Below, piece after piece: positions 13,214-45,790 of a DNA stretch of 64,000 nucleotides. The position numbers were made by a program, and so were the translations under genes. Under the pieces are notes generated by a model, which was not told the origin of the DNA, searched no databases, and saw nothing but the letters and a program-made list of their open reading frames with translations. How positions within the stretch are numbered: the stretch's first letter is position 1; each line of letters starts with the position of its first letter. The stretch spans positions 12,690 through 76,689 of the forward strand of contig JADZAY010000009.1 of the NCBI GenBank assembly GCA_020852375.1, written 5' to 3'. This DNA is from Candidatus Yanofskybacteria bacterium. GTDB lineage: Bacteria; Patescibacteriota; Minisyncoccia; 2-02-FULL-40-12; GWA2-44-9.

Positions 13214-14874
13214 AATCCCGCTTCATCGCAATTTCCATACTCGCAATCGCCTCGCTCTTTGCGATTGTTCTGGGAGGAGCTCGCCCCGCCACCGCTGCAT
13301 TCGACACTACCCAGCTCTCCCCAGGACAACCCGTGAGCCAGGAAACGAGCACCACGCTTTCCGATATCATAAAAAACCGCGGTCTTACCGGGGATCGCTA
13401 CAAACAGATCTGCGTCGCCGGAAACATCTTTACCCTTTTCAAGGGGAATCTTGATGAAATTGGAAAGCGAATACTGAACCAGCTTGGGGGAATACTGAAA
13501 GACGTGTTCGCGATCATGAAAAAGACTTTGGTCGCATGCGCGGCGAATAGCATTCTAAACAGATTCGGCCTCCCCTCGATCCCTTGTAGCCAGATCGTCG
13601 CATCGGAAACAACCGCATATTTGAAAGCACGCGCCGAAGTCGACTTGAAACAGAGCTTCATAGCGCGATGCGTGGTAGACCAGCAGATCAACGACATCAC
13701 CAACACCATCGACCGCATGATCCAGGAGCAGGGGCCGGAAGGCGGCCCCGCATGGGCAACCAACTGGATCGAGAACTCATACGTGAACCCCGACCGCCAG
13801 GCATACCGCCGCTTCTGGACCCTGCTCGTGAACACTGATATCTGCGAGTACATGCGGCAGGACGTATACAACTACTTCGATGTCCCGCAGTCGTACCGTG
13901 AAAATCCGCCGGTAATGAACCTCACCGAGCTCAGCGTTGACGGGGGAACCCCGTTCCCGCTATCAGCCGCATGCACTGCAAAAGGTTGGGCCCCGGGCAA
14001 GATCACCGATACCCAGACATTCGCCACGAATGGTGGCTTCGCTCTTCTGAGCCGCCTTTCAGAGCCCCAAAACAACCCTACCGGCTTCATCCGTCTCGCC
14101 GAAGCAGAGCTGAGAAAACAGCGGGCGACGATGATAGATTCGGTCACCAACCAACTCGTCAGCGGCGGTGGCGTGTTCCCGGTCTACGGAACGAAAGAGG
14201 AGAGCTGCAACATGGACCCCGATGGCAACTGCGTCACGAATGGCCGCATCCGTCAGGCGCCCGGCGTCGCTCGCGACCTCATCAACTCCTCGTTCAACGC
14301 ACAACTAACATTTCTCAATAACACCAACGGAACGACTGCGAAGGCCATGGAGGATATTTCCGCTCGCATCCGTGCGCGCATGCTCGATATGGCAAACCAG
14401 CCGCTCCCCATTAAGCTCGAACTCGGCCTTGAGGACGACCCGGACAACGTCATCACCCCAACCCCGACACCGAGCGTCTCCCCGGGCGAATATCCGCCCG
14501 ATGATCCATCCTGCACGGGCGGGAACCCACAGTGCACCTGCGTACGGAGCGAACCGAACGCCGTTGCGCTCGTCGGCTCGGTCGTCCGGAGCGCCGTCGA
14601 GCGAGCCATGCAGCTGAACCCGGCATTCTTTGATCCCCCGGGGAGCAACCGCATCGCTTCCGGCGTGAACTACCGGACCGTTCTTCAGGCGGTATGCGAT
14701 CAGATGCAGCCGCCGCAGGGAACCATCTGCAAGCCGCACCCGGGGCAAGACGATGAGATCGTACTGGTGACGCAAATCATGAGCATTTCAGTCGACGTGA
14801 TCACCGGCGACGGAGGATTGCGTTCGAACGGAGGCAACCCCGTCGCCGCATGTGAGCTTGGAGTTCAAGACTAG
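13210..14874 (+). CDS. large secreted protein, hypothetical (554 aa)
   Basis: Signal peptide. Cys-rich. PTPTPSVSP linker. 4-bp overlap with the upstream gene. Confidence 0.55.
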   Translation: MKSRFIAISILAIASLFAIVLGGARPATAAFDTTQLSPGQPVSQETSTTLSDIIKNRGLTGDRYKQICVAGNIFTLFKGNLDEIGKRILNQLGGILKDVFAIMKKTLVACAANSILNRFGLPSIPCSQIVASETTAYLKARAEVDLKQSFIARCVVDQQINDITNTIDRMIQEQGPEGGPAWATNWIENSYVNPDRQAYRRFWTLLVNTDICEYMRQDVYNYFDVPQSYRENPPVMNLTELSVDGGTPFPLSAACTAKGWAPGKITDTQTFATNGGFALLSRLSEPQNNPTGFIRLAEAELRKQRATMIDSVTNQLVSGGGVFPVYGTKEESCNMDPDGNCVTNGRIRQAPGVARDLINSSFNAQLTFLNNTNGTTAKAMEDISARIRARMLDMANQPLPIKLELGLEDDPDNVITPTPTPSVSPGEYPPDDPSCTGGNPQCTCVRSEPNAVALVGSVVRSAVERAMQLNPAFFDPPGSNRIASGVNYRTVLQAVCDQMQPPQGTICKPHPGQDDEIVLVTQIMSISVDVITGDGGLRSNGGNPVAACELGVQD

Positions 14875-14876
14875 CC

Positions 14877-17465
14877 ATGACCCTACGCCGATCCATAGTA
14901 TTTATAGGACTCCTCACCATCGCAGTCGCGGTCGTGCCGCATGCGGCGCATGCGGCATCAAGCCCTGTCGAGTTTTTGACTGACCCTGGACTGTACATCA
15001 CCGTCATGATCCGGGATGTCCTGCAGTTCGTCGCCGGCGTCTTGACGGACTTTATTGTATGGATCGGAGACCGTCTTCAAGAAATTCTAAACCTACCGCT
15101 CAGCACCGGTGGCGTCGCCGTGTATGCGGTATGGAAGATGCTCCGCGACATGTGCAACATGCTGTTCATCGTTGCATTTATCGTTATGTCATTCGCGACC
15201 ATCTTCGGGGTGTTTCTGAAAGGGGACTATTACTACAGCAACGCCATCAAGGGCGTGCTTATCGCGGCGATCACGATCAACTTTAGTCTCGCGGTTGGTC
15301 AGACGATCATTTGGGGAGGGAATGAAGCCACAAAAATGGTCCTCGATCTCCTCCCAGAAAACACCGGGGCATCGATTGCGTTAAAACTAAGGGTCCTCGA
15401 TGTCATCGGTGGGGCCCAGGAAGGCAACGCAATTTCTTCACCGAACCAAAACACTGCCCGCGGTCGACTCACGCCGGCGCAGCGGATCGTTTATGACGCG
15501 TGGAGTAAGGATGGCAACACCGATGCAAAAAAGGTTCTTGAGGACTGCTTAGCGCACAATGGAACCCCTGCACAATGCATGGAGCAGGCCACGCAGTCGA
15601 CGTCCTTCGCCGAAGACGTCTTGAGCGCGGCCGGAGCTGCCTACTCAACAACAGGGGAGGCGCTTACCGCCGGCGTCGAGGCGCTCGCCGGGCAAGTGGT
15701 GCCAGGTGGGGCAACAATCCTCCGATCGCTAACGGGAAGAGAAACTAAAGGGGATAAAGACTGGAAAACCCAGCTCGAAATAATCGAGTCGATCATCATC
15801 CAAATCCTCTTCCTGCTGGTTCTGTCACTCTCATTCCTCGCGGTGCTCGTCTTCATGATCATACGGATACCTGCGATGTGGCTCCTTCTTTCCGTATCGC
15901 CGCTCGCATTCTTCTCGCTTGCGATCCCGGGACAGAGTCGCTTCAAGGACTGGTTCAACGGTGTTCTCGCGTGGTCTATCTTCTCGCCTCTGTACCTATT
16001 CATCGTCTACATCGGCCTCTACCTCGTCGAACGCCAAGGCGCGCTCCTAGAGAGTCTCCGCGATCCAGGCGGCAACATCCCGTTTATCGCCGGGAACCTC
16101 GCATCACTTCTCTTCCTCATCATCGCAGGAGCTATCTTTATCGGTGGCGCTGGATGGGCGATGAAATACTCGTTCAGCCTCGGGAAAGGCATCGGCAACC
16201 TCGCCGTCGGAACTTGGTGGGGCGCTACCGCGGGGAGGTGGTTCGGTATGTCGGAGAAAGAGCCGGTACTATTTAGACTTGCCGGAAGCCTCACCGGCAT
16301 TACACCAAGACTCCAGGCCAGAAAAGAGCAGATCGCACAGAAATACGGGGATATCGTTGCTGGAGCCCGCGGACGATTCCCGTCGCTCCTGCGAACCGAA
16401 GAGGAGGCGCTCGCGTTGCGTCGAGAACAGCGCGGCGTACGTGGAGCGGACAAAAAATATGCAGATGCCATCGCAAAGCGCGTAGACACCCAAAAAGCCA
16501 TCATCGAATCGAACAGGCTTAAGACGGAGGACCTCAAGAAGCTCCTCAAAAGCGGCAACCGAGATGCCAAGCTTGCTGCCGGAGAGATTCTCCTCGGAAA
16601 AGGGGAGCTCACCGCCGAGGAGCGCGAAGTTGTGCTCAAGCAATACGGAGAAATATCGGGGCTTGCAAAGAAGAACTTCCAAACGAAGGTCACCGCGCAG
16701 CTCCAAAAGGAATCCGCGCGCACCTGGGCGAAATACACCGACACCGGGAAAGAGGGCGGGGCATTCGACTTCGAGAAGTTTATCGCCACCGCGCAGCAGG
16801 CGGGCGGATCCGAAGACAAACGCAAATTCCTCGAGGCGGCCATGCGCGGCGAGGTCGGTTCGCGAGCACGATTCGATGCGAGCCAACTCCAGAAACTAGC
16901 CGACACGCTCGACAACAATGAAGACAAGCGCCTCCTCTTCGAAACCGTTTCGAGGAGCGGCCGCAACAAGGTTGTCGCCATCGAAACTATGGCTGCCCTC
17001 GGACTTATCACCGATCGCGCCGGAAAACGCCTCGACGCCGCGGGAGCGATCGCCGATCGTATCGACTCTCTATCATCGCCAGACGATCTTCTAGATGCAG
17101 AAGATTATTACCAGCGATCCGGAAACCCGATGCCAACCCCAATCCAAGAAAAGTTTAATGCATCGCTATTCCGGGATCGCTCGAAGTCGGCGAAAATGCT
17201 CCGAAACGCAAACCCGGAACAAGTCGACCGGCTCTACGGTTCGCTTGTCCAGGAGGCTGAGCGCGTACGATCGGCTCAAGAGGGGATCGAATCCCAGAAG
17301 ACATCGGAGCGGCGCATCAAAAAGATCGAGGATCGCTGGCGAAGGCGCATGAAGGGGATTAAGAGCCAGCCAGCCCGAAGAAGTATTGAACGAAAAATTG
17401 AAAAACTCGGAGATATCCGCGAGAAACTTAAGCGGTCGTACGAACGCGCACGCAAAACGCTATGA
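14877..17465 (+). CDS. VirB6/TrbL-like polytopic membrane protein with long C-terminal charged coiled-coil domain
   Basis: Signal peptide, multiple TM helices interrupted by a large extracytoplasmic loop, about 400-aa K/E/R-rich tail. Assignment based on topology and its position just upstream of the VirB4 ATPase. Confidence 0.5.
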   Translation: MTLRRSIVFIGLLTIAVAVVPHAAHAASSPVEFLTDPGLYITVMIRDVLQFVAGVLTDFIVWIGDRLQEILNLPLSTGGVAVYAVWKMLRDMCNMLFIVAFIVMSFATIFGVFLKGDYYYSNAIKGVLIAAITINFSLAVGQTIIWGGNEATKMVLDLLPENTGASIALKLRVLDVIGGAQEGNAISSPNQNTARGRLTPAQRIVYDAWSKDGNTDAKKVLEDCLAHNGTPAQCMEQATQSTSFAEDVLSAAGAAYSTTGEALTAGVEALAGQVVPGGATILRSLTGRETKGDKDWKTQLEIIESIIIQILFLLVLSLSFLAVLVFMIIRIPAMWLLLSVSPLAFFSLAIPGQSRFKDWFNGVLAWSIFSPLYLFIVYIGLYLVERQGALLESLRDPGGNIPFIAGNLASLLFLIIAGAIFIGGAGWAMKYSFSLGKGIGNLAVGTWWGATAGRWFGMSEKEPVLFRLAGSLTGITPRLQARKEQIAQKYGDIVAGARGRFPSLLRTEEEALALRREQRGVRGADKKYADAIAKRVDTQKAIIESNRLKTEDLKKLLKSGNRDAKLAAGEILLGKGELTAEEREVVLKQYGEISGLAKKNFQTKVTAQLQKESARTWAKYTDTGKEGGAFDFEKFIATAQQAGGSEDKRKFLEAAMRGEVGSRARFDASQLQKLADTLDNNEDKRLLFETVSRSGRNKVVAIETMAALGLITDRAGKRLDAAGAIADRIDSLSSPDDLLDAEDYYQRSGNPMPTPIQEKFNASLFRDRSKSAKMLRNANPEQVDRLYGSLVQEAERVRSAQEGIESQKTSERRIKKIEDRWRRRMKGIKSQPARRSIERKIEKLGDIREKLKRSYERARKTL

Positions 17466-17986
17466 TCGAACCAACCGACCCACGAAGCCCGGAGGTGATC
17501 GAATATATCTCCCTGAGTCCCTACGCGGCGGCACTGCAGGGGAAAGACCCTATCGATCGGGAGTTGTTCGGTCTGGTCTTCGACGACCTCCCGGAGCCAG
17601 TGAAAGACACGCTAACCGATCCGACCACGGTGGAAACCATCAAGCAATGGGCGCGCGACGGTCTCTTTCCGGCAACACATGCTCCGGCCATCGCGAAGCT
17701 CATCGGGCTCGTCGCGCTCGACGAGGTTGCCTTCGAGGCCATCCCTCAACTCCTTGAGCGTATCGGGCTTTCCCGGGACCAAGCGGGGCGAACCACTGCC
17801 GCGATCACAAAACTCCTGCAGGCACTCACTGATGCGCGCGCGAACGAAACAGCAGAAGAGGCGGCGCCGCAGGAACTCCGTGAGCTCCCGCCGCTTACCC
17901 AACGCGTGCCTCCGCAAGGACCCCATTCTGGCACCGAGACGCCCGCGCGTAATATAATAGACTTACGCAAGAAGCCCGAAGCATGA
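17462..17986 (+). CDS. hypothetical protein (T4SS-like operon)
   Basis: 174-aa ORF translationally coupled to both neighbours. Confidence 0.45.
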   Translation: MIEPTDPRSPEVIEYISLSPYAAALQGKDPIDRELFGLVFDDLPEPVKDTLTDPTTVETIKQWARDGLFPATHAPAIAKLIGLVALDEVAFEAIPQLLERIGLSRDQAGRTTAAITKLLQALTDARANETAEEAAPQELRELPPLTQRVPPQGPHSGTETPARNIIDLRKKPEA

Positions 17987-18294
17987 AATTTCAAGTTCCT
18001 CAATTCATCGAGACGGAAACAAAGCTCATCGGGCCACTTACGCTCCGACAGTTCCTCTTCGTCGCTGGCGGCGTCAGCATGACCGCTATGGCGTATATCG
18101 CGCTGAATGGCATCTACTTTGCGATCGCCGCGATCCTCATTCTGGGATTCTTCGGAGCGCTCGCATTCGTACGGATCGACGGACAACCGTTCTTCAATTA
18201 TCTCGCCTACATGCTCGCGTACACGCTCGGCGCGAAGCGGTACATCTACCGAACCGGCGGGAACCAGAATCAATTCACACCACCTCATGCCTGA
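17983..18294 (+). CDS. PrgI-like / VirB3-like small two-TM membrane protein
   Basis: 103 aa, two TM helices (LFVAGGVSMTAMAYIALNGIYFAIAAILILGFFGALAFV), immediately upstream of VirB4. This arrangement is typical of Gram-positive and CPR T4SS loci. Confidence 0.5.
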   Translation: MKFQVPQFIETETKLIGPLTLRQFLFVAGGVSMTAMAYIALNGIYFAIAAILILGFFGALAFVRIDGQPFFNYLAYMLAYTLGAKRYIYRTGGNQNQFTPPHA

Positions 18295-18925
18295 ACCATC
18301 GACGACCGAACTGATCCAACTCCAATCCGTCTCGGACGGAGTCATCATCCTGAAGGACGACTCGCTCCGCGCTATCGTCGAGGTTACCGCCATCAACTTC
18401 GAGCTCCGAAGCGGCGAAGAACAGGCCGCCATTTTGCAACAATTCGCCGCATTTCTGAACTCCGTCGATTTCCCGGTCCAGCTCGTCGTCCACTCGCGCA
18501 GATTCGACATCAGCACCTACCTCGCCTCCGTACAGCAAGCCACCCAAGCACTGACTAATGACCTCCTGAAAGTGCAGGCGGAGGAATATATCCGGTTCGT
18601 CTCTGAGCTCTCAGACCTCGCGAACATCATGGCAAAGCGGTTCTACATCGTGCTGCCGCTTTCGGTCGTGCCGGTCGCCGCCAGCGGGGGATTTATCTCG
18701 GGAATCACCGGCCTGTTCAAAAAGAAGCCGAAAGAAACGGCGATCTCCCCAGAGCGCATCGCCCAATACAAGTCTCAGCTTCAGCAACGCGCGGAGATCG
18801 TCATCGGCGGCATCTCCGGCATGGGTTTGCGTGGGCGCATGCTCGAACAAGCGGAGGTCGTCACCCTGTTCAACGCGCTCTACAATCCGGTCATTCCCGC
18901 AACCAAGAAACCAGAAACACCGTAA
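18287..18925 (+). CDS. VirB4/TrbE-family protein, N-terminal domain fragment (split from ATPase domain)
   Basis: 213 aa starting MPEPSTTELIQLQSVSDGVIILKDDSLRAIVEVTAINFELRSGEEQ, resembling the N-terminus of conjugal-transfer ATPases. Ends with TAA 2 nt before the ATG of the ATPase ORF, in a different frame. Confidence 0.5.
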   Translation: MPEPSTTELIQLQSVSDGVIILKDDSLRAIVEVTAINFELRSGEEQAAILQQFAAFLNSVDFPVQLVVHSRRFDISTYLASVQQATQALTNDLLKVQAEEYIRFVSELSDLANIMAKRFYIVLPLSVVPVAASGGFISGITGLFKKKPKETAISPERIAQYKSQLQQRAEIVIGGISGMGLRGRMLEQAEVVTLFNALYNPVIPATKKPETP

Positions 18926-18927
18926 CC

Positions 18928-20670
18928 ATGGACGAATCCCTCTCGATCGCACAATCCATCGCACCGTCAGCGCTCCACATCACCCCGAACTACCTCCAGG
19001 TGGGGGACAAGTATGCGCGTACCATCGTGATCGCTTCGTACCCACGGTATTTGAACGCGAGTTGGCTCTCTCCGATCATCAATTTCGACAAGGTTCTCGA
19101 CATATCGATCTTCGTGAATCCGCAACAGACCTCCACAGTTCTCAAACAGTTGCGCGACAAGCTTGCACACGTCCAGGCCCAGATCATGGAGGAGGAGGCG
19201 GCTGGGAAGGTTCGGAACCCGGTACTCGAGACGGCCGCGCAAGACATCGAAGCGCTCCGCGATGAGCTTCAGCAGGGGACCGAACGCTTCTTCCAGGTTG
19301 GCCTCTATATCACCATCTACGAGAACAGCCCGCAGGAGCTGGACGAAACCGAAAAGACCATCCGCAGCATCCTCGACGGCCAGCTGGTCGTTGCCAAGCA
19401 GGCGACATTCCGTATGCTCGAGGGATTCCTGACCACATCGCCGCTCGCCGACGACCGCATTCAGGCGCTTACCGCACTCAACACGCAGCCGGTAGCATCG
19501 ATGTTCCCGTTCATATCGAGCGATCTTACCAGCGACTCCGGCATCTTGTATGGAGTGAACACGACGAACAATTCGCTCGTGCTCTTCGATCGCTTCTCGC
19601 TCGAGAACGCGAACACCGTGCTGTTCGCAAAGTCCGGTGCCGGAAAAAGCTACACCGTGAAGCTCGAGATCCTGCGTTCACTGATCATGGGGACGCAGAT
19701 CCTCGTCATCGACCCTGAGGACGAATATAAATATCTGAGCGACACGGTCGGCGGCACGAACGTGAAGATCTCGATCAACTCCGATCAGCACATCAATCCA
19801 TTCGACCTCCCGACACCAAAAGACGAGGAATCGTGGAGCGACGTGTTCAACTCACACATCCTTGGCCTCGCTGGCCTCATAAAACTGCTCATGGGAGGCC
19901 AGTTGTCACCGGAAGAGGAATCGATGATCGACCAGGCGCTCATCCAGACATACGCCCTGAAAGACATTACCCCCGATACCGACTTCTCGAATCTACCGCC
20001 GCCAGTGTTGAGCGACCTCCAAAGCATCCTCGAGGGGATGGCGGGGGCGGAACGCATGGCAACGCGCCTCAAGAAGTTCACCGAAGGAACATTCGCAGGA
20101 TTCCTCAACAATCCGACCAATGTTCCACTCGACAACCAGCTCGTCGTCTTCGGCATCAGAGACCTGGAAGACGAGCTTCGCCCGATCGCTATGTACTCGG
20201 TGCTCAACTACATCTGGACACAGGTGCGTCGCGAGCGGAAGAAGCGCATCCTCGTCGTCGATGAGGCCTGGTGGATCATGAAATTCCCGGTTGGAGCTGA
20301 CTTCTTGTTTAACATCGCGAAGCGCGGCCGAAAATATTACGTCGGACTCACCACGATCAGCCAGGACATCCCCGACTTCATGAGCGCGCCGCAAGGAAAG
20401 GCGATCGTGACGAACTCCTCCATTCAGGTGCTCATGAAGCAGTCTCCGGCGGCTATCGATATTATCCAGCAGACTTTCAACCTTACCGATTCGGAGAAAT
20501 ACTACCTCCTTGAAGCGCGCGTCGGGTTCGGGTTGTTCTTCCTCGGCGCAAACCATGTCGGGCTCCGGGTGCTCGCTTCCTACGCAGAAGACCAGATCAT
20601 CACCTCAGATCCGAAACAGCTCATCGAGATCGAAAAAGCAAAGCAAGAGTGGGCGAAGCTAAATACATAG
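18928..20670 (+). CDS. virB4: VirB4/TrbE/CagE-family type IV secretion ATPase (C-terminal and middle domains)
   Basis: Walker A FAKSGAGKSYT, Walker B ILVVDEAWWIM; 580 aa. Confidence 0.85.
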   Translation: MDESLSIAQSIAPSALHITPNYLQVGDKYARTIVIASYPRYLNASWLSPIINFDKVLDISIFVNPQQTSTVLKQLRDKLAHVQAQIMEEEAAGKVRNPVLETAAQDIEALRDELQQGTERFFQVGLYITIYENSPQELDETEKTIRSILDGQLVVAKQATFRMLEGFLTTSPLADDRIQALTALNTQPVASMFPFISSDLTSDSGILYGVNTTNNSLVLFDRFSLENANTVLFAKSGAGKSYTVKLEILRSLIMGTQILVIDPEDEYKYLSDTVGGTNVKISINSDQHINPFDLPTPKDEESWSDVFNSHILGLAGLIKLLMGGQLSPEEESMIDQALIQTYALKDITPDTDFSNLPPPVLSDLQSILEGMAGAERMATRLKKFTEGTFAGFLNNPTNVPLDNQLVVFGIRDLEDELRPIAMYSVLNYIWTQVRRERKKRILVVDEAWWIMKFPVGADFLFNIAKRGRKYYVGLTTISQDIPDFMSAPQGKAIVTNSSIQVLMKQSPAAIDIIQQTFNLTDSEKYYLLEARVGFGLFFLGANHVGLRVLASYAEDQIITSDPKQLIEIEKAKQEWAKLNT

Positions 20671-20671
20671 T

Positions 20672-21697
20672 ATGCCAGGAGAAGTATCGCCCCAAACACC
20701 AACAAACATCGTTCCACCGCCTCCGCAAAATGGTGGAGGTACACCGAAACCAGTCGATGGGGTCGGGGTGGGGGGCGCTATCGAGACGAGCGTAAACATT
20801 GCTGAGCGCCGTAAAGTCAAAAGAGATATCCGGGAAACGCGCCGCGTCTATGACATCGCAGCCGCCTCAGGAGCAACAACCCGAACCCGAGGAGCCAGAA
20901 CGGCGGGCGCCGTGCTTTCGTCGCCAGACCTTCCCCAAGAAGTCCGCGGACTCGCCGAGCGGCTCCGCTCGCTCATCTCTGACAACAAACGGAAAAGCGA
21001 AGATCGGACAAAGGAGTTCGACGCCATCCGCCGATCCATCAAGCGGTCGTTCATCGGTATCACCGGACTCGCACTGTATATCGCAATCTCCGCCGACATC
21101 CTCAGCATCTTTGACGCGGGGTGGATCATCTCGTGGGCAATTCCGATCGTGCTATTCTTCGTGGCTCGCCGCATCGGAGCGATCAATAAAGGAGCTGAGC
21201 GCGCGCAAAAGGCGTACGCAGCAACCCTCCGGGAGCTTCAGCTCATCAACCAACGCCTCGGCACCATCCCTGGGCAGCAACAGCGGCCCGTCCTTGCCGG
21301 TCTTACTGAACAGCTTCAGGGAAAAGTCGGTCAGTACATGACCCGGTTCGTCCTCGAAACCGCTGGCATACAAGGATTCGAGCTCATACCGATCCTGGAC
21401 TGGCTTCCCGCATACACCGGCGGAGTTGTGAAGGTAGCCATCGACCAGTACAACGCGTACCAAAAAGCTCAGCGCATGCTCCCGCCGCTTCAGGAGGCGT
21501 TCGCTCGCCTCGAACAGCTCGAGACGGAAGAAGTTGCGGCGCTCGAAGCGCAGCTCAGTGAAGCGCTTGCGTTGTATCAGCCGGAATTCACCGAGCGGTT
21601 TTATGTATCAGAAGAGGCCCCCCGTATCATGGATATAACCCGACCCTCGACGCGACCGCTCGAAGCGCCGTTGCTCGTACCCGAACCCGCACTATGA
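20672..21697 (+). CDS. membrane protein, hypothetical (T4SS-like operon)
   Basis: Pro-rich N-terminus, central TM pair, coiled-coil C-terminus. Coupled to VirB4. Confidence 0.5.
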   Translation: MPGEVSPQTPTNIVPPPPQNGGGTPKPVDGVGVGGAIETSVNIAERRKVKRDIRETRRVYDIAAASGATTRTRGARTAGAVLSSPDLPQEVRGLAERLRSLISDNKRKSEDRTKEFDAIRRSIKRSFIGITGLALYIAISADILSIFDAGWIISWAIPIVLFFVARRIGAINKGAERAQKAYAATLRELQLINQRLGTIPGQQQRPVLAGLTEQLQGKVGQYMTRFVLETAGIQGFELIPILDWLPAYTGGVVKVAIDQYNAYQKAQRMLPPLQEAFARLEQLETEEVAALEAQLSEALALYQPEFTERFYVSEEAPRIMDITRPSTRPLEAPLLVPEPAL

Positions 21698-22851
21698 AAC
21701 CCTTCCGCGCAAACCTGAATTTTGTCCACGAACGACGCATTGCCTCAGCCGGAGTTGTGATCGGCGCGCTTGTGGCAACCGTCGTCGTCACGGCGTTCGT
21801 GTGGAGCGGAGTAGCTCCGCGTTCTCGACAGACAGCATCGATTGCAAACATCCCGGCAGATACAACACCTCCGCAAACTTTGTCACCGAAGGCTGTTCGA
21901 GTTGCTCCAGAGCCTATCAGCGAACACGCTGTCAGCTCTGTGGCCCACAGTCGAACGCCCGATACCGTCCGCTACTACGAGCAAGAGACTGGGCGTGCGT
22001 TCCAAGTCGACCTCCGCACACTCAAGACGGAAACCCTTTCGGATCGCAAGCTCCCCGGATTCATTCAGTCGTTCTGGGTCCCGAATGCAGATGCGGTAGT
22101 CTCGTTGTTCGATGAAGCGGGGAGCAAAAAGTACCGCTACTATGACTACCAGACACGAACCGCAAAAACGATTGGGTCTGCTGTATCGACGCTCGCCGTC
22201 TCTCCAAGCGGACGCCGCATCGCGTTTATCGATACGACTGGTGAATATCAAGCTCTCTATATCGGCGACACTGATGGAACCGCGGTCCGCAAGGTATTCG
22301 ATACTCGCGCGCAGCACGTCGCTCTCTCGTGGCCCCGCGAAGACGCCTTGGTGCTCACCTCACGCAGGCCGGACCGCGCTGGAACGGATATGTCGGTCAT
22401 CGGACTGAACGGCGAGCTTCGTGTCCTCATGTCGAACCGCGAAAACCTGGAGTACACATGGTCGCCAGATGGGTCGAACCTCCTCTTCTCGTACTTCTTT
22501 CCAGGGAGGGGGATTACACTATGGTATCGCTCTCTCGATAGCGCCCTTGAGATTCCCGTCCCGCTCGCCACGAGCGCTTGGAAGTGCGCCTGGCACAACT
22601 CCAACGAAAAGATCACATGCGGCGTCCCAACCACAACGCTCTCGCGAGATGTGGCGTCCGACAAAACCGCAACGATCGACACCATCGCGACCATCGATCT
22701 TCGCAGCGGGAAGGTCTCGAATCTTTACACTGGCAGTCGGGAGCCCCTCATCGGGGTCATAAATCCCTCAATCTCATCATCGCAACGATACTTCGTCTTC
22801 ACAAACCTCTTCGACCGGCGGCTGATGGAGCTCGAGTTGCCCGCGTATTAG
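21694..22851 (+). CDS. membrane-anchored beta-propeller (TolB-like) protein, hypothetical
   Basis: N-terminal TM helix followed by a WD40/TolB-like repeat pattern. Last gene of the operon. Confidence 0.5.
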   Translation: MKPFRANLNFVHERRIASAGVVIGALVATVVVTAFVWSGVAPRSRQTASIANIPADTTPPQTLSPKAVRVAPEPISEHAVSSVAHSRTPDTVRYYEQETGRAFQVDLRTLKTETLSDRKLPGFIQSFWVPNADAVVSLFDEAGSKKYRYYDYQTRTAKTIGSAVSTLAVSPSGRRIAFIDTTGEYQALYIGDTDGTAVRKVFDTRAQHVALSWPREDALVLTSRRPDRAGTDMSVIGLNGELRVLMSNRENLEYTWSPDGSNLLFSYFFPGRGITLWYRSLDSALEIPVPLATSAWKCAWHNSNEKITCGVPTTTLSRDVASDKTATIDTIATIDLRSGKVSNLYTGSREPLIGVINPSISSSQRYFVFTNLFDRRLMELELPAY

Positions 22852-24936: not shown

Positions 24937-26334
24937 TTGCGGCACATGTCATCCATTCCTCCGGAAGATATTTGGAAAGCAGTGTTGGGAGAAATGGAGC
25001 TTTCTCTTTCTCGCGCGCATTTTACGACGTGGTTCAAGAACACGTCGATCGTCTCTCGTGATTCAAATTCGGTAACGGTGAGTGTTCCGAATGGTTTCGT
25101 AAAGGAATGGCTTGAGAATAAGTTCAACCGCCAAATCCTCGCTTCCGTCCGAAAGCTTTGCAATGAGATTCGAGAGGTCCGCTATATCGTCGGACAACCG
25201 AAACCAGAACCGGCACGCCAGGACATCTCTAAAATCATTATTGAGAAAGAATTCCAGGAACAGTCGGCTGTCGATCAAAGCCAAGAAATCGATAAGGTTA
25301 CCCATCTGAACAAGAAGTACTCCTTCGATTCATTCATCGTCGGCTCATCGAATGAGCTTGCCTTTGCGTGTGCCCAGTCGGTTGCCGCGAATCCTGGGAA
25401 AAACTACAACCCGCTCTTTATTTATGGTGGAGTTGGCCTAGGAAAGACGCATTTGATCCAATCCATCGGAAACAAGCTCCTCACCGATGTCCCTGAACGG
25501 AAGGTGTTGTACACATCGGGTGAGAAACTCACATCGATTATTGTGGAAGCGATCCGAAATCGAACTATCGAAGATATCAAATCGGTGTACTCCCGCCTCG
25601 ATCTCCTTGTTATTGATGACATCCAATTCATAGCCGGAAAAGACAAGACCCAAGAAGTCGTGTTCACGATCTTCAACGAGCTTCACAACCACAACAAACA
25701 GGTTGTGTGCACATCGGATCGGCCCCCGAAAGCGATCCCTGCCATCGAAGAGCGTCTTCAGTCTCGCCTCGAAGGGGGAATGTTGGTTGATATCAATATG
25801 CCCGATTTTGAAACGCGATTGGCGATTTTGAAACAAAAATCAGTTGAGCGGTCCTCACCGCTTACCGATGAAGTCCTTTCATATATAGCAACCCATATCC
25901 AAAAAAATGTTCGCGAACTCGAGGGGGCTCTTAATCGAGTGATCGCCCTGGCGCAGATCTACAACCGTCCGCCAGACCTTAAAGAGGTGAAAAACATCCT
26001 CACCGCATACTTGTCGGTTCCGTACCGAAAAACATCCCCGCAGGCTATTTTGAAAACGGTCGCCGATTTCTACAATATTTCTTCAGCCGACCTTACGAAG
26101 CGGAGTCGAAAGAAAGAGGTTGTAAAGCCGCGGCAAGTCGCCATGTTCCTTTTGCGAGAAGAAATAAAGCTTTCTTTCCCGGAAATCGGACAGAAGCTTG
26201 GTGGCCGCGACCACTCGACAGTCATCCACGCATGCGAAAAGATAAAGAAAGAAGAGGGAATCGACGAGCCACTCAAGAACGAGCTCACTATGATCCGCCA
26301 GCGTATTTACGACTCTTTCGAGCACTCGGGATAG
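24937..26334 (+). CDS. dnaA: chromosomal replication initiator protein DnaA
   Basis: AAA+ motifs [16 protein letters not shown] and [10 protein letters not shown]-terminal DNA-binding domain. Confidence 0.95.
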
Positions 26335-26564
26335 GTTGTTGAAAACCCTGTGGATGACCTTTGTGTGCGCTGTGGGTGAAATGTGTGAATTATTCCCGCC
26401 TCCGGAAACGACCCACAAACACACCCGGGAAATAAGGTTCCCGTCCACATTCGGAATCCTTGGTTTCTCCGCGAAAGGAAAGAGAAATAGCGAGCTCCAT
26501 CCCCATATCAACACCCATAATAAGATATAGTAATATAAGTTAGATTATAGAGCAGAAAAACACT
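26335..26564. promoter_or_regulatory. candidate oriC: DnaA-box-like motifs plus AT-rich unwinding region in the dnaA-dnaN spacer
   Basis: TGTGGATGA 26349-26357, TGTGGGTGA 26371-26379, TGTGTGAAT 26382-26390, GTCCACATT about 26443-26451. The run ATAATAAGATATAGTAATATAAGTTAGATTATAG 26517-26550 is nearly pure AT. Confidence 0.5.
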
Positions 26565-27659
26565 ATGAAGATCACGGTCCATAAAGAACGCTTCGCACGG
26601 GCCCTCGGGTTTGTTGAGCGGATAACCTCTCGAAATTCTTCTCTTCCGATCCTTAATAATGTTCTCTTAAAAACAGAACATGGGAGATTAAAGGTTTCCG
26701 CAACAAATCTCGAGATCGGTGTAACATCGGTTATCGGGGCGAGCGTTGAGCGTGAGGGTCAGATCGCTGTCCCCGGGAAGACGATCGCCGATTTTGTGCG
26801 AAGTGTGCCCGGAGAGACTCTTGATATCAATGTCGATCAGCATACGCTTTCTGCAAGCTCAGGGTCTTACCAGACATCGATTCTTTGTTTTGACCCGGCA
26901 GAGTATCCAATCATCCCAAAGATAGATGGAGGGGAGCAGTTTGTTGTTTCAGTCGAGACTCTCCAGCGGCTTATCGATACCGTGAGCGACTCCATCGCAA
27001 CATCGGATTCACGCCCCGAACTCTCTGGTGCGCTCCTTCGCTTTGATACCGGTATCGTTTCGATGGCGGCGACCGACATCTTTCGTCTTGCAGAACAACG
27101 AGAGGATGGTGAATTTTCGTCCTCTGGTGCCGCTATTGTGCCCCGTGGGACGATATACGAGCTTAGAAGGGTTCTCGGTGGTCTTTCGGGAGATATTACC
27201 GTTCACCTAACAGATAACCAGATCGCATTCGTCCACGAAGACTGCGAGATCGTTTCTCGTCTTATCGATGGGAAGTATCCTGATTATAAAAAAATAATCC
27301 CGGAACGAGCAAACGCTCGCGTGCTTGTCCGGAGAGAAGAAATAGAGAATGCGGTAAAAACAGCAGCTCTCTTTTCCTCAAGCATCTCGGACATCAAGCT
27401 CGAGTGCTCCGGTGCGGAGCTGAAGATCACCGGGAAGAACTCGAATAAAGGGGAAGCGTATGCAGGAGTAGAGGCGAATTTAAAGGGTGATCCGTTCGAT
27501 GTTTCGATGAACTATCATTACCTTCTTGATGGTTTGCGGGCTGTGCCAACGGAAAAAATCATCCTAGAGTTTACCGGCAAAGGAAGCCCATTTGTCCTTC
27601 GGCCGCACAGTGACGATCCTCGGACGGTGTATTTGATCATGCCTCTCCGGAGTTCCTAA
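26565..27659 (+). CDS. dnaN: DNA polymerase III subunit beta (sliding clamp)
   Basis: 364 aa; MKITVHKERFARALGFVERI...NLEIGVTS is typical of DnaN. Confidence 0.95.
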   Translation: MKITVHKERFARALGFVERITSRNSSLPILNNVLLKTEHGRLKVSATNLEIGVTSVIGASVEREGQIAVPGKTIADFVRSVPGETLDINVDQHTLSASSGSYQTSILCFDPAEYPIIPKIDGGEQFVVSVETLQRLIDTVSDSIATSDSRPELSGALLRFDTGIVSMAATDIFRLAEQREDGEFSSSGAAIVPRGTIYELRRVLGGLSGDITVHLTDNQIAFVHEDCEIVSRLIDGKYPDYKKIIPERANARVLVRREEIENAVKTAALFSSSISDIKLECSGAELKITGKNSNKGEAYAGVEANLKGDPFDVSMNYHYLLDGLRAVPTEKIILEFTGKGSPFVLRPHSDDPRTVYLIMPLRSS

Positions 27660-40300: not shown

Positions 40301-40373
40301 CCGCCCTTAGCTCAGTTGGTAGAGCTGCTCCCTCTTAAGGAGAAGGTCGTAGGTTCGAATCCTACAGGGCGGA
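40301..40373 (+). tRNA. tRNA-Lys (anticodon CTT)
   Basis: Acceptor CCGCCCT/AGGGCGG. Anticodon loop ctCTTaa. Confidence 0.8.
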
Positions 40374-40378
40374 CCGAT

Positions 40379-40416
40379 ACAGAAAAGCAACACCCGTTTG
40401 GGTGTTGCTTTTCTGT
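40379..40416. terminator. perfect 15-bp hairpin
   Basis: AGAAAAGCAACACCC-gttt-GGGTGTTGCTTTTCT. Confidence 0.5.
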
Positions 40417-40424
40417 ATATTGGT

Positions 40425-40555
40425 GGCCCGCTGTAGGGTTTGAAGCCCGGAGCGATGTGGCGGCAGCGGCCGACACCGCGAGGGCCGGAGCCCGGAGGCG
40501 GACGGCTCAGACCGGGGGCCGTTCGACCGGAGGGTGAATCCTACAGGGCGGACCA
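40425..40555 (+). repeat. tRNA-3'-linked structured repeat (core + 19-bp copy of tRNA-Lys 3' end)
   Basis: CTGTAGGGTTTGAAGCCCGGAGCGATGTGGCGGCAGC..GAGGGCCGGAGCCCGGAGG..GACCGGAGGGT, then GAATCCTACAGGGCGGACC 40536-40554, which equals 40357-40375. Followed by hairpin 40560-40590. Confidence 0.6.
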
Positions 40556-40597
40556 CATAAACCAAAACACCCCGCGAGGGGTGTTTTGGTTGAGGCC

Positions 40598-41143
40598 TTA
40601 CTGGATGACCTCGATCTGGACGAGGCGGCGACCCAGCTTGAGTGCGGCGGCCTTATCGGCAAACCACACGTCAACGTTCTTCTGGTACCGGGTGTTCATG
40701 CGGTCCTCGACAACGAAGATCTTGTCACCGAACAGTGACGGGATCTTGATGACGGTACCGAACGGGAACATGTTCGTGGCGACGATACCGTCACGCACGT
40801 GGGTACCCTTTGCGGTAATGAACGGGCTGTCGTCGGTCTGAGCGGCCTCGGAGTTGTACGCAGACACCTCAACAAGGTAGGTCTTTCGCAGAGCCTTCTT
40901 CGTACCGCCGACCGGCGAGTTTGCCGGGACCACGGCATTTGCCATGAGCATCGGCCTCTCGTCGTCGGTAGCTCCCGAAGAGAGCACCGAAGCGTACAGT
41001 TGGTCGAAGGATCCCTCGTGGGCAACCTGGGAGCTAGCACCGTTTGAGCGGAACCAGTCCATAAGGCCTGCCTGGGCTGACAGGGAGGTCGACAGTGTGA
41101 TGGCAATGAGCGTAGCTACCAGAATCAGCTTGCGCGTCTTCAT
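40598..41143 (-). CDS. 3D domain-containing (MltA-like fold) cell-wall protein
   Basis: C-terminal 3D motif VATNMFPFGTVIKIPSLFGDKIFVVEDRMNTRYQKNVDVWF. Signal peptide/TM helix. Start at internal Met (MKTRKLIL). Confidence 0.6.
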   Translation of the reverse strand: MKTRKLILVATLIAITLSTSLSAQAGLMDWFRSNGASSQVAHEGSFDQLYASVLSSGATDDERPMLMANAVVPANSPVGGTKKALRKTYLVEVSAYNSEAAQTDDSPFITAKGTHVRDGIVATNMFPFGTVIKIPSLFGDKIFVVEDRMNTRYQKNVDVWFADKAAALKLGRRLVQIEVIQ

Positions 41144-41436
41144 GGTGATGCCGTCTCCGATATCCGCAGATGAGCCGCAGTTGGCTTTCGCTGGGCAGCT
41201 CACGGACAACGCAGAGGGCGGTATTGCAATCCGGCTCAGGTACGGGGGAGGGATGAAAAAATGGCCTATCAAGCCATTCCTGCATTTGCCTCATCTACAC
41301 GCTGGATTGTACATACAGTATAGCAAAACCGGCTCAAAAAGTCAATAGCCAAAAAGCCCTTAAAATAGGCTTAAAATAAGAAAAAAATGAACATTTTTGC
41401 CCAGAGATCAGCGGATTCTTCCGGAGGGGTAGGGGG

Positions 41437-42322: not shown

Positions 42323-42405
42323 CACTTGGCCACTCCTTATTCTGCATGTATGAAGGAAGTGGCTGGCCAAGTGTCCTGAGCGCATAGGCGCGAAGGACTA
42401 CAGTG
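42323..42405 (+). promoter_or_regulatory. conserved hairpin + -10 module (copy 1 of 3) upstream of tRNA-Val(GAC)
   Basis: CACTTGGCCACTCCTTATTCTGCATGTATGAAGGAAGTGGCTGGCCAAGTG hairpin, then TCCTGAGCGCATAGG..., then TACAGT 11 nt before the tRNA. Confidence 0.4.
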
Positions 42406-42496: not shown

Positions 42497-42871
42497 TTAG
42501 TTTTTTAGTCTCTTCCCCCGATAGTGAGCCGCTTCGGCGAGGAATCGTTCGTCATCTTTTGTGCTATGCCTGACGGCGTGGCAATTCGCACAGAGAAGAG
42601 TGCATTTCAGGATCTCTGCCCGGATGCTCTCCCAGCTCTTGTTCGCGACATTACCGAGAGTGAAGTCTTTCTTTTGTGGATCAAGATGATGGAATTGAAG
42701 GGCGGCCTGATGGCCCCTCCAGCCACAATCCACGCACTTTCCGCCGAGGATGCGTATGGCAGCCGCCTTGGTTCGATAGCGCCGGATCTTGGTGTTGCAG
42801 GCCCCGCATCTGGCGCGCATTTTCCCCTGGTAATCGTTGTACTCTTTGCCGCATAGTTTACAGATCGTCAT
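42497..42871 (-). CDS. HNH endonuclease (free-standing, zinc-ribbon N-terminus)
   Basis: CKLCGKEY..CGAC N-terminus. HNH core CVDCGWRGHQAALQFHHLDP...LLCANCHAVRH. Paralogous in architecture to the HNH gene at 2384-2755. Confidence 0.75.
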   Translation of the reverse strand: MTICKLCGKEYNDYQGKMRARCGACNTKIRRYRTKAAAIRILGGKCVDCGWRGHQAALQFHHLDPQKKDFTLGNVANKSWESIRAEILKCTLLCANCHAVRHSTKDDERFLAEAAHYRGKRLKN

Positions 42872-42945: not shown

Positions 42946-43223
42946 GCCGCGGTAGCTCAGTGGTAGAGCGCAGCCCTAAATCTTTGGGGCTTTCCGCAGG
43001 AATGCGGATTGAGAAATCGGGTGAATTCGGGGGAACTCCGGAACGGTCTGGACAATCCCGAGCCGAGCTCCGTGGGGTATCCAAAACGGAGAAGGTGTAG
43101 AGACTAGCGGGTGAGCCCAACAATACTCCCGCACAAGCGCCCGACCTCCAGAACGGAGGATGATATAGTCCAATTCAGCTTCGGAAGAGGCTGGCGTCGG
43201 GGGTTCAATTCCCTCCCGCGGCA
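42946..43223 (+). tRNA. intron-containing tRNA, most likely tRNA-Phe (anticodon GAA); exons 42946-42977 and 43184-43223
   Basis: 5' exon GCCGCGGTAGCTCAGTGGTAGAGCGCAGCCCT and 3' exon GAAGAGGCTGGCGTCGGGGGTTCAATTCCCTCCCGCGGCA together give a 72-nt cloverleaf with anticodon loop ctGAAga. Identity rests on the splice-junction assignment, including an unusual G37. Confidence 0.7.
42978..43183 (+). ncRNA. group I self-splicing intron (Azoarcus-type) in tRNA anticodon loop
   Basis: 206 nt. Internal guide GGGGCT (42986-42991) pairs with exon end AGCCCU with a U.G pair at the splice site. P2 hairpin CCGCAGGAATGCGG. Core GAAGGTGTAGAGACTAGCGGGTGAGCCC closely resembles the Azoarcus tRNA-Ile intron P7 region, with ATATAGTCC as the P7 3' strand. 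The intron ends in G. Confidence 0.75.
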
Positions 43224-43224
43224 C

Positions 43225-43267
43225 AAAGTAAACTAAAACCGCCCCTCAGGGCGGTTTTAGTTTACTT
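43225..43267. terminator. perfect 20-bp hairpin after tRNA-Phe
   Basis: AAAGTAAACTAAAACCGCCC-ctca-GGGCGGTTTTAGTTTACTTT. Confidence 0.5.
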
Positions 43268-43411
43268 TCCTGCTCGCGGCCGGGAATTGAAGGGCATCGA
43301 GCCGAGCGAACTGCTTCGCTCGGTGAGAGCCCGGGCTCCGGGGGAGCATCGAAGCGTCCGCCGAAGGCGGCTGCGAAGATGCGGAGGAGGAGAATTCCCT
43401 CCCGCGGCACA
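43268..43411 (+). repeat. tRNA-3'-linked structured repeat, unit 1 of tandem pair (divergent core + 19-bp copy of tRNA-Phe 3' end)
   Basis: AATTCCCTCCCGCGGCACA at 43393-43411 equals tRNA 43207-43225. 5' flank GCGGCCGGGAATTGAAGGGC is roughly complementary to the T-arm. Followed by hairpin 43414-43449. Confidence 0.55.
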
Positions 43412-43452
43412 GAAGCAAAAGCCGACCCCATGTGGGGCCGGTTTTTGCTTTT

Positions 43453-43588
43453 ACGTATCGTGGCGGGAGGGAATTGAACGCCGGAGCGATGCGGTATCAG
43501 CTGATATCGCCGCGAGGCGGTGGCCAGCCCGAGCGTCGCGACGGCGCCGCGAGAGGCGAGGCCAATGACTGACCCCTCCCGCGGCACC
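43453..43588 (+). repeat. tRNA-3'-linked structured repeat, unit 2 of tandem pair (canonical core)
   Basis: CGTGGCGGGAGGGAATTGAACGCCGGAGCGATGCGGTATCAGCTGATATCGCCGCGAGGCGGTGGCCAGCCCGAGCGTCGCGACGGCGCCGCGAGAGGCGAGGCC, then CCCTCCCGCGGCAC (a partial copy of the tRNA 3' end). Followed by hairpin 43595-43623. Confidence 0.6.
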
Positions 43589-45221: not shown

Positions 45222-45330
45222 TGGCGGAATTATTGTAACTCTCCGCGCCTGCCTGCCGGTAGGCAGGCCCATGCGCTCGGGGCACTTGGCCAGCCACCCC
45301 CTTCATACATGCAGGATAAGGAATGGCTAA
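45222..45330 (-). promoter_or_regulatory. conserved hairpin + TACAAT module (copy 2 of 3) upstream of the NUDIX gene
   Basis: Minus-strand reading: CACTTAGCCATTCCTTATCCTGCATGTATGAAGGGGGTGGCTGGCCAAGTG hairpin, then CCCCGAGCGCATGGG.., GCCTGCC-hairpin, then GAGAGT-TACAAT-AATTCC. ATG 40 nt downstream. Confidence 0.4.
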
Positions 45331-45332
45331 GT

Positions 45333-45455
45333 GTGGGCGGTAGAGGACTCGGCTTTGTCTCTCGCGTCGCCGTTGCGACGCTCGGATTAGCCACCGCCTC
45401 GCGGCGCCACCTACTGGCGGCGCATCGCTCCGGCGTTCGAGCCTCTACCATTCGC
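45333..45455 (-). repeat. tRNA-3'-linked structured repeat (core + 19-bp copy of tRNA-Val(TAC) 3' end)
   Basis: Minus-strand reading: GGTAGAGGCTCGAACGCCGGAGCGATGCGCCGCCAGTAGGTGGCGCCGCGAGGCGGTGGCTAATCCGAGCGTCGCAACGGCGACGCGAGAGACAAAGCCGAGTCCTCTACCGCCCACAC. The 19-bp copy at 45333-45351 equals 45502-45520. Hairpin 45457-45500 separates it from the tRNA. Confidence 0.6.
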
Positions 45456-45576: not shown

Positions 45577-45660
45577 GAATTATTGTAGCCCCGCGAACCC
45601 ATGTTCTCGGGACACTTCGCCAGCCAACTCCTTCATACATACAGAATAAGGAGTGGCGAA
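45577..45660 (-). promoter_or_regulatory. conserved hairpin + TACAAT module (copy 3 of 3) upstream of tRNA-Val(TAC)
   Basis: Minus-strand reading: CACTTCGCCACTCCTTATTCTGTATGTATGAAGGAGTTGGCTGGCGAAGTG hairpin, TCCCGAGAACATGGG.., then GGGGC-TACAAT-AATTCC directly abutting the tRNA 5' end. Confidence 0.45.
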
Positions 45661-45790
45661 GTGTGGGGGGAGCCTGGATTCACCCTCCGGTCAGGCCTGC
45701 GCCGTCGCTTGGCCTGCCTTCGGGCTCCGGCCCTCACGGTCGCGCCTGCTGGCGCGACATCGCTCCGGGCTTCGAATCCTATCACTCCAA
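45661..45790 (-). repeat. tRNA-3'-linked structured repeat (Lys-type core + diverged copy of tRNA-Ile 3' end)
   Basis: Minus-strand reading: GATAGGATTCGAAGCCCGGAGCGATGTCGCGCCAGCAGGCGCGACCGTGAGGGCCGGAGCCCGAAGG..GACCGGAGGGTGAATCCAGGCTCCCCCCACAC. Hairpin 45791-45836 separates it from tRNA-Ile. Confidence 0.55.

Follow-up and report, generated by a model that had tools for sequence, protein, structure and literature searches.

A candidate protein-less insertion element with its own guide behind tRNA genes of Patescibacteria

Why should an intact tRNA-Lys gene be followed closely by a second, exact copy of its own 3′ end, with a strongly structured segment between the two? The question is raised by a stretch of 64,000 nucleotides from a Candidatus Yanofskybacteria bacterium (contig JADZAY010000009.1, positions 12,690 to 76,689; the whole stretch is hereafter the window), which belongs to the Patescibacteria, tiny-genome and mostly uncultured bacteria. 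A preliminary description, made from the letters alone, had seen here a copy of a repeat family tied to tRNA genes. Our answer, which we hold with slightly better than even confidence, is that the DNA behind tRNA-Lys is a small, protein-less, non-autonomous mobile element aimed by its own guide. As read from its copies, the element consists of an optional terminator-like hairpin (H), a guide of 12-16 nt (X′) and a conserved core of ~90 nt.

The putative target gene, tRNA-Lys(CTT), lies at 40301-40375 on the plus strand (ARAGORN; 68.7 bits with the Rfam tRNA model). The 19-mer GAATCCTACAGGGCGGACC occurs exactly twice on this strand, at 40357-40375 (X-left, tRNA nucleotides G57-C75) and at 40536-40554 (X-right), identical at 19/19 positions and with a spacing of 179; by arithmetic, an exact 19-mer should recur by chance within 200 nt some 5e-5 times per 64 kb. 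Because its nucleotides 57-75 are present as X-left, the tRNA gene is intact. X-right is continuous with the native downstream DNA, as judged by synteny with the relatives described below. X-left starts directly after T54-T55-C56, and the same left boundary is found in T-loop units elsewhere (44 measured). What had been described as a 19-bp copy of the 3′ end is indeed a copy, although not merely of an end: it is a target duplication whose left edge is fixed between T-loop nucleotides 56 and 57.

Two syntenic relatives, L122 and L121, were reached via homologues of window proteins. In L122, whose neighbouring cysteine desulfurase shares 61% amino acid identity, tRNA-Lys is followed directly by aaaagcaaaacaccccgtgaggggtgttttgctttgagg and the convergent gene, and the covariance model R1 (see below) finds no unit; the site is empty. 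Therefore, the DNA between the two 19-mers together with one 19-mer is extra in the window, and by this comparison it is a ~180-bp insertion with the insert at 40376-40535 or, equivalently owing to the repeat, at 40357-40516. In L121 (69% amino acid identity in the neighbouring gene) a tRNA-Lys unit is present at the same place, with a slightly different guide. Upstream of the real tRNA-Lys, L121 also holds at 6396-6475 a partial copy of the 5′ end of that gene (tccgcccttagctcag ... ttggtagag), its D-loop split by a 44-nt insert that folds into two hairpins; this may be a different element, one that duplicates the 5′ end of its target.

Hairpin H (40377-40418, plus strand) is part of the insert. 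Its arms, 40377-40395 and 40400-40418, form a 19-bp stem with 100% complementarity around a 4-nt loop (GTTT), and it is missing from the L122 empty site. In L121 six stem positions differ, all of them changed on both strands with the stem kept. H is probably a terminator for the tRNA operon. The second hairpin (40560-40591, unstranded) has perfect 14-bp arms, 40560-40573 and 40578-40591, and ends 6 nt from the convergent stop codon (40598-40600). It is native host sequence, because the L122 hairpin within aaaagcaaaacaccccgtgaggggtgttttgctttgagg, directly 3′ of tRNA-Lys, is its orthologue, and in three genomes this probable bidirectional terminator sits at the convergent ends of two transcription units. 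A simple terminator scan calls neither hairpin, the T-runs of both lying within the long stems. The two had been presented as equivalent flanks with perfect stems of 14-15 bp. The stems are perfect, but the first is longer than the 40379-40416 noted for it, and the flanks are not equivalent: one arrived with the insert and the other stands outside it. The second had also been proposed as terminator of a convergent 3D-domain gene. A shared terminator is supported by the L122 empty site, whereas the domain label lacks Pfam support, the gene (40598-41272, minus strand) having no Pfam match even at E≤10 and its L121 orthologue having none recorded.

Between H and X-right, and again on the plus strand, lie the guide and the core. 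The guide X′, CTGTAGGGTTTGAA at 40431-40444, is complementary to TTCGAATCCTACAG (40354-40367) in the T-loop and T-stem of tRNA-Lys through 12 Watson-Crick pairs (86%) and 2 G:U, in agreement with the T-arm complementarity that the preliminary description had reported for this flank. Its 5′ 11 nt pair with target positions +1 to +11, and its last 3 nt, GAA (40442-40444), pair with T54-T55-C56 before the junction. In minimum free energy (MFE) folds an upstream extension, GTGGCCCG (40423-40430), forms an imperfect duplex with the 3′ strand of the acceptor, in either copy of X. We considered whether X′ is a direct copy of the T-arm 5′ half, left from a broken tRNA, and rejected this: the extra base fits a reverse complement (GGATTCGAA) and nothing tRNA-like lies upstream.

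The core at tRNA-Lys (40445-40535, ~90 nt) is G+C-rich and ends at T40535, which adjoins X-right. Its P2 domain (40445-40485) carries the signature CCGGAGCGATG-N19-CGCGAGG at 40447-40483 and comprises the helix P2 (GCCC/GGGC, 40445-48 / 40482-85), a GGA/GA internal loop, the helix P2a (GCG/CGC), an AU bulge and the hairpin hp1 (40457-40476). The P3 domain (40486-40535) is made of P3 (GCCC/GGGT, 40490-93 / 40532-35) around the hairpin hp2 (40497-40528). Folding tRNA and element as one transcript, a check that the preliminary description had suggested, gives an MFE structure in which X′ pairs with the T-arm and 3′ end of the real tRNA, and in which the 5′ half of tRNA-Lys pairs with the downstream copy; such a fold speaks of thermodynamics only.

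The Lys unit is not alone. Seven units follow six tRNAs in the window, so that 6/16 tRNA genes carry one, always on the strand of the tRNA and in the order tRNA, hairpin, guide complementary to the T-loop and T-stem of that tRNA, core and tRNA 3′-end copy. They are found at Ser(CGA) (3075-3187, plus strand), Ala(GGC) (5393-5505, minus), Lys(CTT) (40431-40549, plus), Val(TAC) (45336-45449, minus), Ile(TAT) (45668-45784, minus) and Phe, where a second unit (43465-43577, plus) stands in tandem with the seventh, of different core (43280-43411, plus). Exact copies of the motif CCGGAGCGATG-N19-CGYGAGG number 5 in the window, where 0.39 would be expected, in support of the claim that the Lys sequence is a copy of a tRNA-tied repeat family. 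Likewise, the subtype GAAGCCCGGAGCGATG...GAGGGCCGGAGCCCG...GACCGGAGGGT is common to the Lys and Ile cores, as had been stated, while Ala, Val and the second Phe unit share another. Between the Ala and second Phe units the junction, P2 and P3 are identical and the hp1 and hp2 stems almost wholly different, yet still paired. Moreover, units occur behind tRNAs that run both with and against the replication fork, and thus their orientation follows the gene, not replication. A probable replication origin is marked by dnaA and dnaN (24937-27659) beside a GC-skew sign change.

The seventh unit (43280-43411) has a second core type, to which the R1 model is blind and which we also found at 8733-8862 of L121 and at ~1000-1125 of L024. 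The layout is the same. The guide has GAA as its last 3 nt; next come a P2-like helix, GGGC/GCCC, closing a hairpin whose loop reads aaCUGCuu, and a 3′ domain GGCUCCG..GGAG...GAGGAG, before the tRNA 3′ copy. In other Patescibacteria, many type-I units have the aaCTGCtt loop again in their upstream hairpin H.

How far does the family extend? We scanned contigs representing one genome per species for CCGGAGCGATG-N19-CGYGAGG and obtained matches at no fewer than 118 genome loci, ~100 of which are true members in that N19 forms a hairpin; the remainder are chance matches in coding DNA of unrelated phyla. Among the matches listed, nearly all true members come from Patescibacteria (Saccharibacteria, Paceibacterota, Kaiserbacteria, Komeilibacteria, Yanofskybacteria and others), with a few from metagenome-assembled genomes labelled Elusimicrobia or otherwise. 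R1, a covariance model built from 34 full-length units, matches 115 units, of which 108 lie in 98 loci, 6 in the window and 1 in L121; the Lys unit is matched over 40431-40549 with 60.8 bits (E 2.7e-14). The family picture of the preliminary description holds at tRNAs, whereas the spread over Patescibacteria, the protein-gene targets and the junction-spanning guide had gone unnoticed. In the viral contigs of IMG/VR there are two motif matches only, both by chance in coding DNA. A phage origin of the window was rejected, a megablast of 38-44 kb against phage records returning one tRNA only and the genes being of cellular housekeeping type. Nor did we find a description of the element, the motif itself included, in the full-text literature, a search that left out much subscription literature. 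Since all genomes are metagenome assemblies, one might ask whether chance similarity or an assembly artefact is at work; the exact 19-mer repeat, 115 model matches in independent assemblies of many studies and covariation far above controls make this negligible.

The core covaries strongly. On the sense strand, MFE folds give each unit the same three-way junction: P1, formed by the guide paired with the downstream target copy; P2, cgCC/GGcg enclosing the GGA/GA internal loop, a 3-bp helix, the AU bulge and hp1; and P3 around hp2. The sequence of P2 is almost invariant and P3 is variable, with several subtypes. In alignment A2, 83.4% of cells are standard pairs against 67.7% in shuffles, and sliding the partners lowers the figure to ~40%. 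Double-change cells number 220 against 76 in shuffles, both-side changes occur in 29/36 pairs, and 0/500 shuffles reach any measure. For hp1 we count at least 68 distinct sequences, all pairing, and P2 and P3 covary as well (cgCC/GGcg to gcCC/GGgc; GGCT/AGCC to GGTT/AACC). The ratio of G:U to A:C is 66:40 overall (p=0.015) and 13:1 in P2a and hp1, an excess which favours a structure on the sense strand of the gene, be it as RNA or as DNA of that strand. P1, hp1 and P3 all show recurrent tandem G.A pairs, which stand opposite +1/+2 in many copies. The loops of hp1 (C-AGCA-G) and hp2 (GCGACGGC) are conserved across phyla and could possibly make tertiary or protein contacts.

Rfam 15 (4227 models) has no family that matches the unit. 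Above threshold, the window yields tRNAs and a single group I intron and nothing else. When the cut-off is relaxed to E≤10, scores on the core of the Lys, Ala and L023 units do not exceed 16 bits, which is noise beside thresholds of 40-83. There is no Rfam match to the small self-cleaving ribozymes (hammerhead, hairpin, twister, pistol, hatchet, HDV-like). The P2 loop was compared by hand with the K-turn, box C/D, hammerhead and group II domain V, none of which fitted, and an archaeal H/ACA sRNA was dismissed as a 14-bit Rfam noise match only.

What, then, are the targets? A tRNA stands just upstream on the same strand in 80/115 units and on the opposite strand in none. We do not take this 80:0 bias as decisive for targeting at the RNA level, because a gene stays intact only if the insertion is co-oriented and the duplication lies downstream. 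T-loop units occur at tRNAs of at least 16 amino-acid specificities, and their downstream copy always begins between C56 and R57. A second group of units sits at the acceptor end or trailer of a tRNA. Other units follow protein genes: for at least 10, the preceding stop codon, 24-32 nt away, belongs to an open reading frame (ORF) of the same strand, and the guide is complementary to the final codons of that ORF. In L002, L046 and L096, for instance, the gene has ~740 codons and zinc-ribbon motifs at its end. In all, the element is seen in the orientation of its target and near the gene 3′ end, the apparent site in tRNAs being either the T-loop at 56|57 or the acceptor end.

Throughout, the guide reaches across the junction, in that target positions −3 to −1, outside the duplicated segment, are paired with its last 3 nt. 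In T-loops the pairing is GAA:TTC, with GAA nearly invariant in the aligned tRNA-linked units; elsewhere it is GTC:GAC, GGG:CCC, GCG:CGC or CCG:CGG. The 3′ end of the core is joined exactly 3 bp inside the 3′ end of the guide-target duplex. The 5′ side differs and has no conserved start: the unit-specific part before the core is as short as ~21 nt in L023, which has the guide only, and as long as 71 nt where hairpin H is present. These junctions indicate that the 3′ end is fixed by base pairing, that the target is duplicated from there onward with the gene left whole, and that the 5′ end is unfixed. Some caution attaches to scores of individual guides, since ungapped guide-site scoring is crude where G.A pairs or bulges occur, and its shuffled control overlaps the observed values at 10-11 of 12. 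In the 8 cases where X-left and X-right differ, the tracking of X′ between them is split 4:3:1.

The length of the duplication bears on the main rival to a guide-aimed element. It varies from 15 to >100 nt, being 19 nt at tRNA-Lys, 25-35 nt in L008, L021 and L023, 54 nt in L087, where the host terminator is included, and 57 nt in L073 and ~100 nt in L014, both well beyond the tRNA end. The right end falls at the tRNA 3′ end (0 or +1) in 21/44 duplications and at +4 to +80 in the rest. A Campbell-type event would predict such stops: a mini-circle [core / X...gene end / H / X′] would recombine with the chromosomal X, leaving the left X as a carried surrogate 3′ end, in the manner of tRNA-integrating prophages and genomic islands and by means of a recombinase in trans or of short-homology recombination. 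The repeat would then run from the T-loop to the tRNA 3′ end, as it does in those 21, and the two sublocations, T-loop and acceptor end, are also those used by integrase subfamilies. However, no integrase lies near any of ~95 loci or among the window ORFs scanned, and at least 16 tRNA specificities and several protein genes offer no shared crossover sequence, a range that one site-specific recombinase would not fit. The long perfect duplications that take in a host terminator or trailer (L087, L014) look generated from the target. Moreover, a mini-circle leaves the ~90-nt covarying core and the junction-spanning guide without a role. We regard it as rather unlikely, although the protein-gene locus L096 also falls within its predictions.

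At L096 (core start 1652, minus strand) copies of the coding end lie ~120 nt before and ~230 nt after the core start. They differ at ten positions, all synonymous, and both keep an open frame. The Campbell-type event would explain this pattern if one copy came from a diverged donor. In L046 two 1-nt deletions in the downstream coding-end copy restore the frame, and the downstream copy of L002 is open as well. Open downstream copies would also fit if that copy were still used, as in an intron-like RNA: the transcript would fold as the 5′ part of the tRNA, a giant T-loop insertion and X-right, and the segment from G57 of X-left to the 3′ end of the core would be removed from the transcript by a small ribozyme, with X′:X-left acting as group I P1 and X′:X-right as P10. 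The whole-transcript MFE has exactly this topology (z = −9.4), and the guide, oriented like an internal guide sequence, pairs with the flank on each side of the junction. Against this, the upstream tRNA is already complete, and H would stop most transcripts. The displaced right copy is also prone to decay, with T-stem-breaking substitutions at Ile (45668-45784) and a 7-nt insertion at the second Phe unit, and thus is not needed there. No splice-site nucleotide is conserved (C, G, A or T at −1), there is no U.G pair, Rfam detects no group I or II core, and known self-splicing cores are far larger than 90 nt. Splicing is a weaker explanation than the mini-circle, and we judge it improbable.

The window and L121 also differ at other tRNAs. 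L121 lacks a unit after both tRNA-Val(TAC) and tRNA-Ile(TAT), where the window has one each. Its tRNA-Phe has only the tRNA-adjacent unit, the second, downstream unit (43465-43577 in the window) being missing. In the window that second unit is flanked by X plus a terminator and by a diverged X plus a terminator (~65% alike by eye), and the terminator at tRNA-Phe of L121 suggests a hybrid of these two. Recombination between the duplicated copies would yield exactly the L121 arrangement, with which the locus is consistent; loss of this kind fits a Campbell-type history too. Tandem units, as at the window tRNA-Phe (43280-43577), are also present in L108 and L024. Copies have evidently been gained and lost between related genomes, and this bears on the idea that the unit serves its host in cis, as a terminator or processing module at the 3′ end of tRNA operons or as a decoy or regulator that pairs with the T-arm. 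Such an RNA would explain why the module is always downstream of and co-oriented with a gene, why H is kept by compensatory changes and why the core is highly conserved across phyla. However, its presence varies at orthologous sites, only 6/16 window tRNA genes have it, copies stand in tandem, duplicated ends decay, unrelated protein genes have the same module behind them, and the duplication of the target 3′ end has no role. A host function is likewise weaker than the mini-circle, and we give it little credence.

Returning to a mobile element aimed by its guide, we suggest the following course. The guide would choose the insertion site, and the 3′ end of the element would be attached there first. 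The 5′ side would be joined imprecisely after a staggered second break and fill-in, giving the target duplication. The catalyst would be the core itself or a factor encoded elsewhere, and copies would be lost by recombination between the duplicated target copies. An RNA intermediate is plausible by analogy and is the most economical idea, because the asymmetry of the junctions resembles target-primed reverse transcription and the partial reverse splicing of linear group II introns and because of the G:U signal on the sense strand. A more specific version, which we offer only tentatively, is a self-targeting mobile RNA of ~110 nt whose guide pairs with the transcript or DNA strand, whose core, as a small ribozyme or as a handle for an unlinked host enzyme, attaches the 3′ end 3 bp within that duplex, and of which a DNA copy follows.

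Several observations weigh against a guide-aimed element. The guide matches every new target and, while T-loops are alike between tRNAs, protein-gene targets are not; guides would have to be rewritten, either by gradual compensation helped by T-loop similarity or by templated correction in the long palindrome of X-left, H and X′. The ten all-synonymous differences at L096 appear unlike the neutral relic of a target duplication; a 3′ end from a diverged donor, or expression of both copies, explains them better. The tRNA 3′ end is the exact stop of about half of the duplications, as it would be for integrase-type surrogate ends. The G:U excess is weak outside hp1. There is no promoter-like site before the Lys unit and H, which looks like a terminator, stands ahead of the core; transcription of the core therefore needs read-through. 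Lastly, coverage of this genome is 64 kb, so that a partner enzyme could exist elsewhere. Within the material covered, an all-against-all BLAST of neighbouring ORFs (±4 kb) gave no protein family in more than 7 of ~95 loci, and the window ORFs scanned include no reverse transcriptase, transposase or integrase.

Some other features of the window accompany the units. tRNA-Phe(GAA) (42946-43227, plus strand) is split just 5′ of the anticodon by the group I intron (42968-43193, Rfam 72 bits); its L121 orthologue is intronless. Immediately upstream, a small ORF (42497-42871, minus) has a weak HNH match (E 0.0027). A separate long-hairpin repeat of ~65-70 nt, cacttggccactccttattctgcatgtatgaagg..ggctggccaagtg, directly follows tRNA-Leu(GAG), tRNA-Val(TAC) and tRNA-Ile(TAT) (42324-42392, plus; 45268-45340, minus; 45598-45670, minus). 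It is kept in L121 (~10600-10665 and ~10790-10845, minus), and its window copies are placed downstream of the units. Beyond tRNA-Ser(TGA) (2290-2377), on its downstream side, an A+T-rich stretch contains a lone inverted T-arm-like string, gggattcgaacc (~2185-2205, minus), without a recognisable adjoining core; it may be a remnant guide or chance. Upstream of dnaA and dnaN, positions 12296-22851 are taken up by large ORFs that lack Pfam matches and surround a TraG/HerA-like P-loop protein (18928-20670).

If insertion is indeed placed by the guide, this natural system would be very small: about a dozen complementary nucleotides would decide where DNA is inserted, and the element encodes no protein. 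The host gene would be spared through its duplicated end, making this a new kind of bacterial mobile element, and a self-guided RNA would represent a new class among bacterial insertion elements, protein-less and naturally retargetable. It would also explain the recurrent partial tRNA 3′ ends behind tRNA genes in Patescibacteria and might furnish a compact scaffold for programmable insertion. Should the mechanism prove ordinary, there would still be a widespread, strongly covarying structured RNA candidate that is missing from Rfam. Moreover, the tRNA-like ends and pseudo-ORFs of the element are easy to mis-annotate, a point of relevance to gene callers and tRNA annotators.

How does the element compare with known systems? 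With integrase elements that integrate into tRNA genes it shares a direct repeat of the tRNA 3′ part from the T-loop, an intact tRNA, a decaying copy and loss by recombination between the repeats. It differs from them in being ~180 bp long (a 179-bp insert with no ORF) with no integrase nearby, in having dozens of targets, protein genes included, in its internal guide and covarying RNA-like core, and in duplications that can take in the host trailer and terminator. IS110/IS1111 elements have bridge or seek RNAs with target and donor guide loops, an adjacent DEDD/serine recombinase gene and a duplication of 2 bp or none. Here, a single guide lies in the terminal helix, the covarying structure has no programmable internal loops, no ORF is adjacent and the duplication is long.

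Catalytic RNAs offer parallels at the junction. As in group II introns, the site is set by pairing across the insertion point (EBS/IBS), the 3′ end is precise and the orientation is that of the target gene. Linear group II introns can perform the first reverse-splicing step only, which gives an imprecise 5′ junction, and bacterial class C introns insert after terminators. Unlike group II introns, however, the element lacks domain V/VI, GUGYG...AY ends and a reverse transcriptase ORF (no neighbouring ORF is recurrent); it has ~90 nt and three helices against >400 nt, leaves a target duplication and has no need to be spliced. The internal guide of group I introns (P1/P10) is matched in that the 3′ part of the guide pairs with the upstream flank and the 5′ part with the downstream one, and in that a hairpin loop precedes the guide. 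In contrast, the junction lacks a U.G pair, the last nucleotide of the core is T, A or C instead of an omega-G, a P3-P9 core is missing, and the group I intron at 42968-43193 is recognised by Rfam whereas the element is not. The hairpin ribozyme similarly binds its substrate strand through a short upstream and a long downstream arm, followed by a helix-internal loop-helix domain at a multi-helix junction, and many copies of the element have tandem G.A opposite +1/+2; here, by contrast, the internal loop is much smaller and there is no sequence or Rfam match.

Among mobile sequences without proteins, non-LTR retroposons and short interspersed elements (SINEs) resemble the element in having a defined 3′ end, a variable 5′ end and target duplications of variable length. 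It is bacterial, however, has no A-tail, finds its site via an internal complementary guide and has no identified partner reverse transcriptase. Repeats of the type of miniature inverted-repeat transposable elements (MITEs), such as REP/BIME, Correia and RPE, and the palindromes of IS200/IS605, are likewise small, non-coding, multi-copy, hairpin-rich and strand-specific, and in IS200/IS605 a short DNA guide-target pairing helps to define the cleavage sites. Here, unlike in MITEs, the 'inverted repeat' X′/X is derived from the target and different at every site, the 5′ end is unconserved and the duplication is 15 to >100 nt rather than a fixed 2-10 bp or none, whilst the core is conserved across phyla. 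Taken together, we file the family as an undescribed small non-autonomous insertion element of the miniature type.

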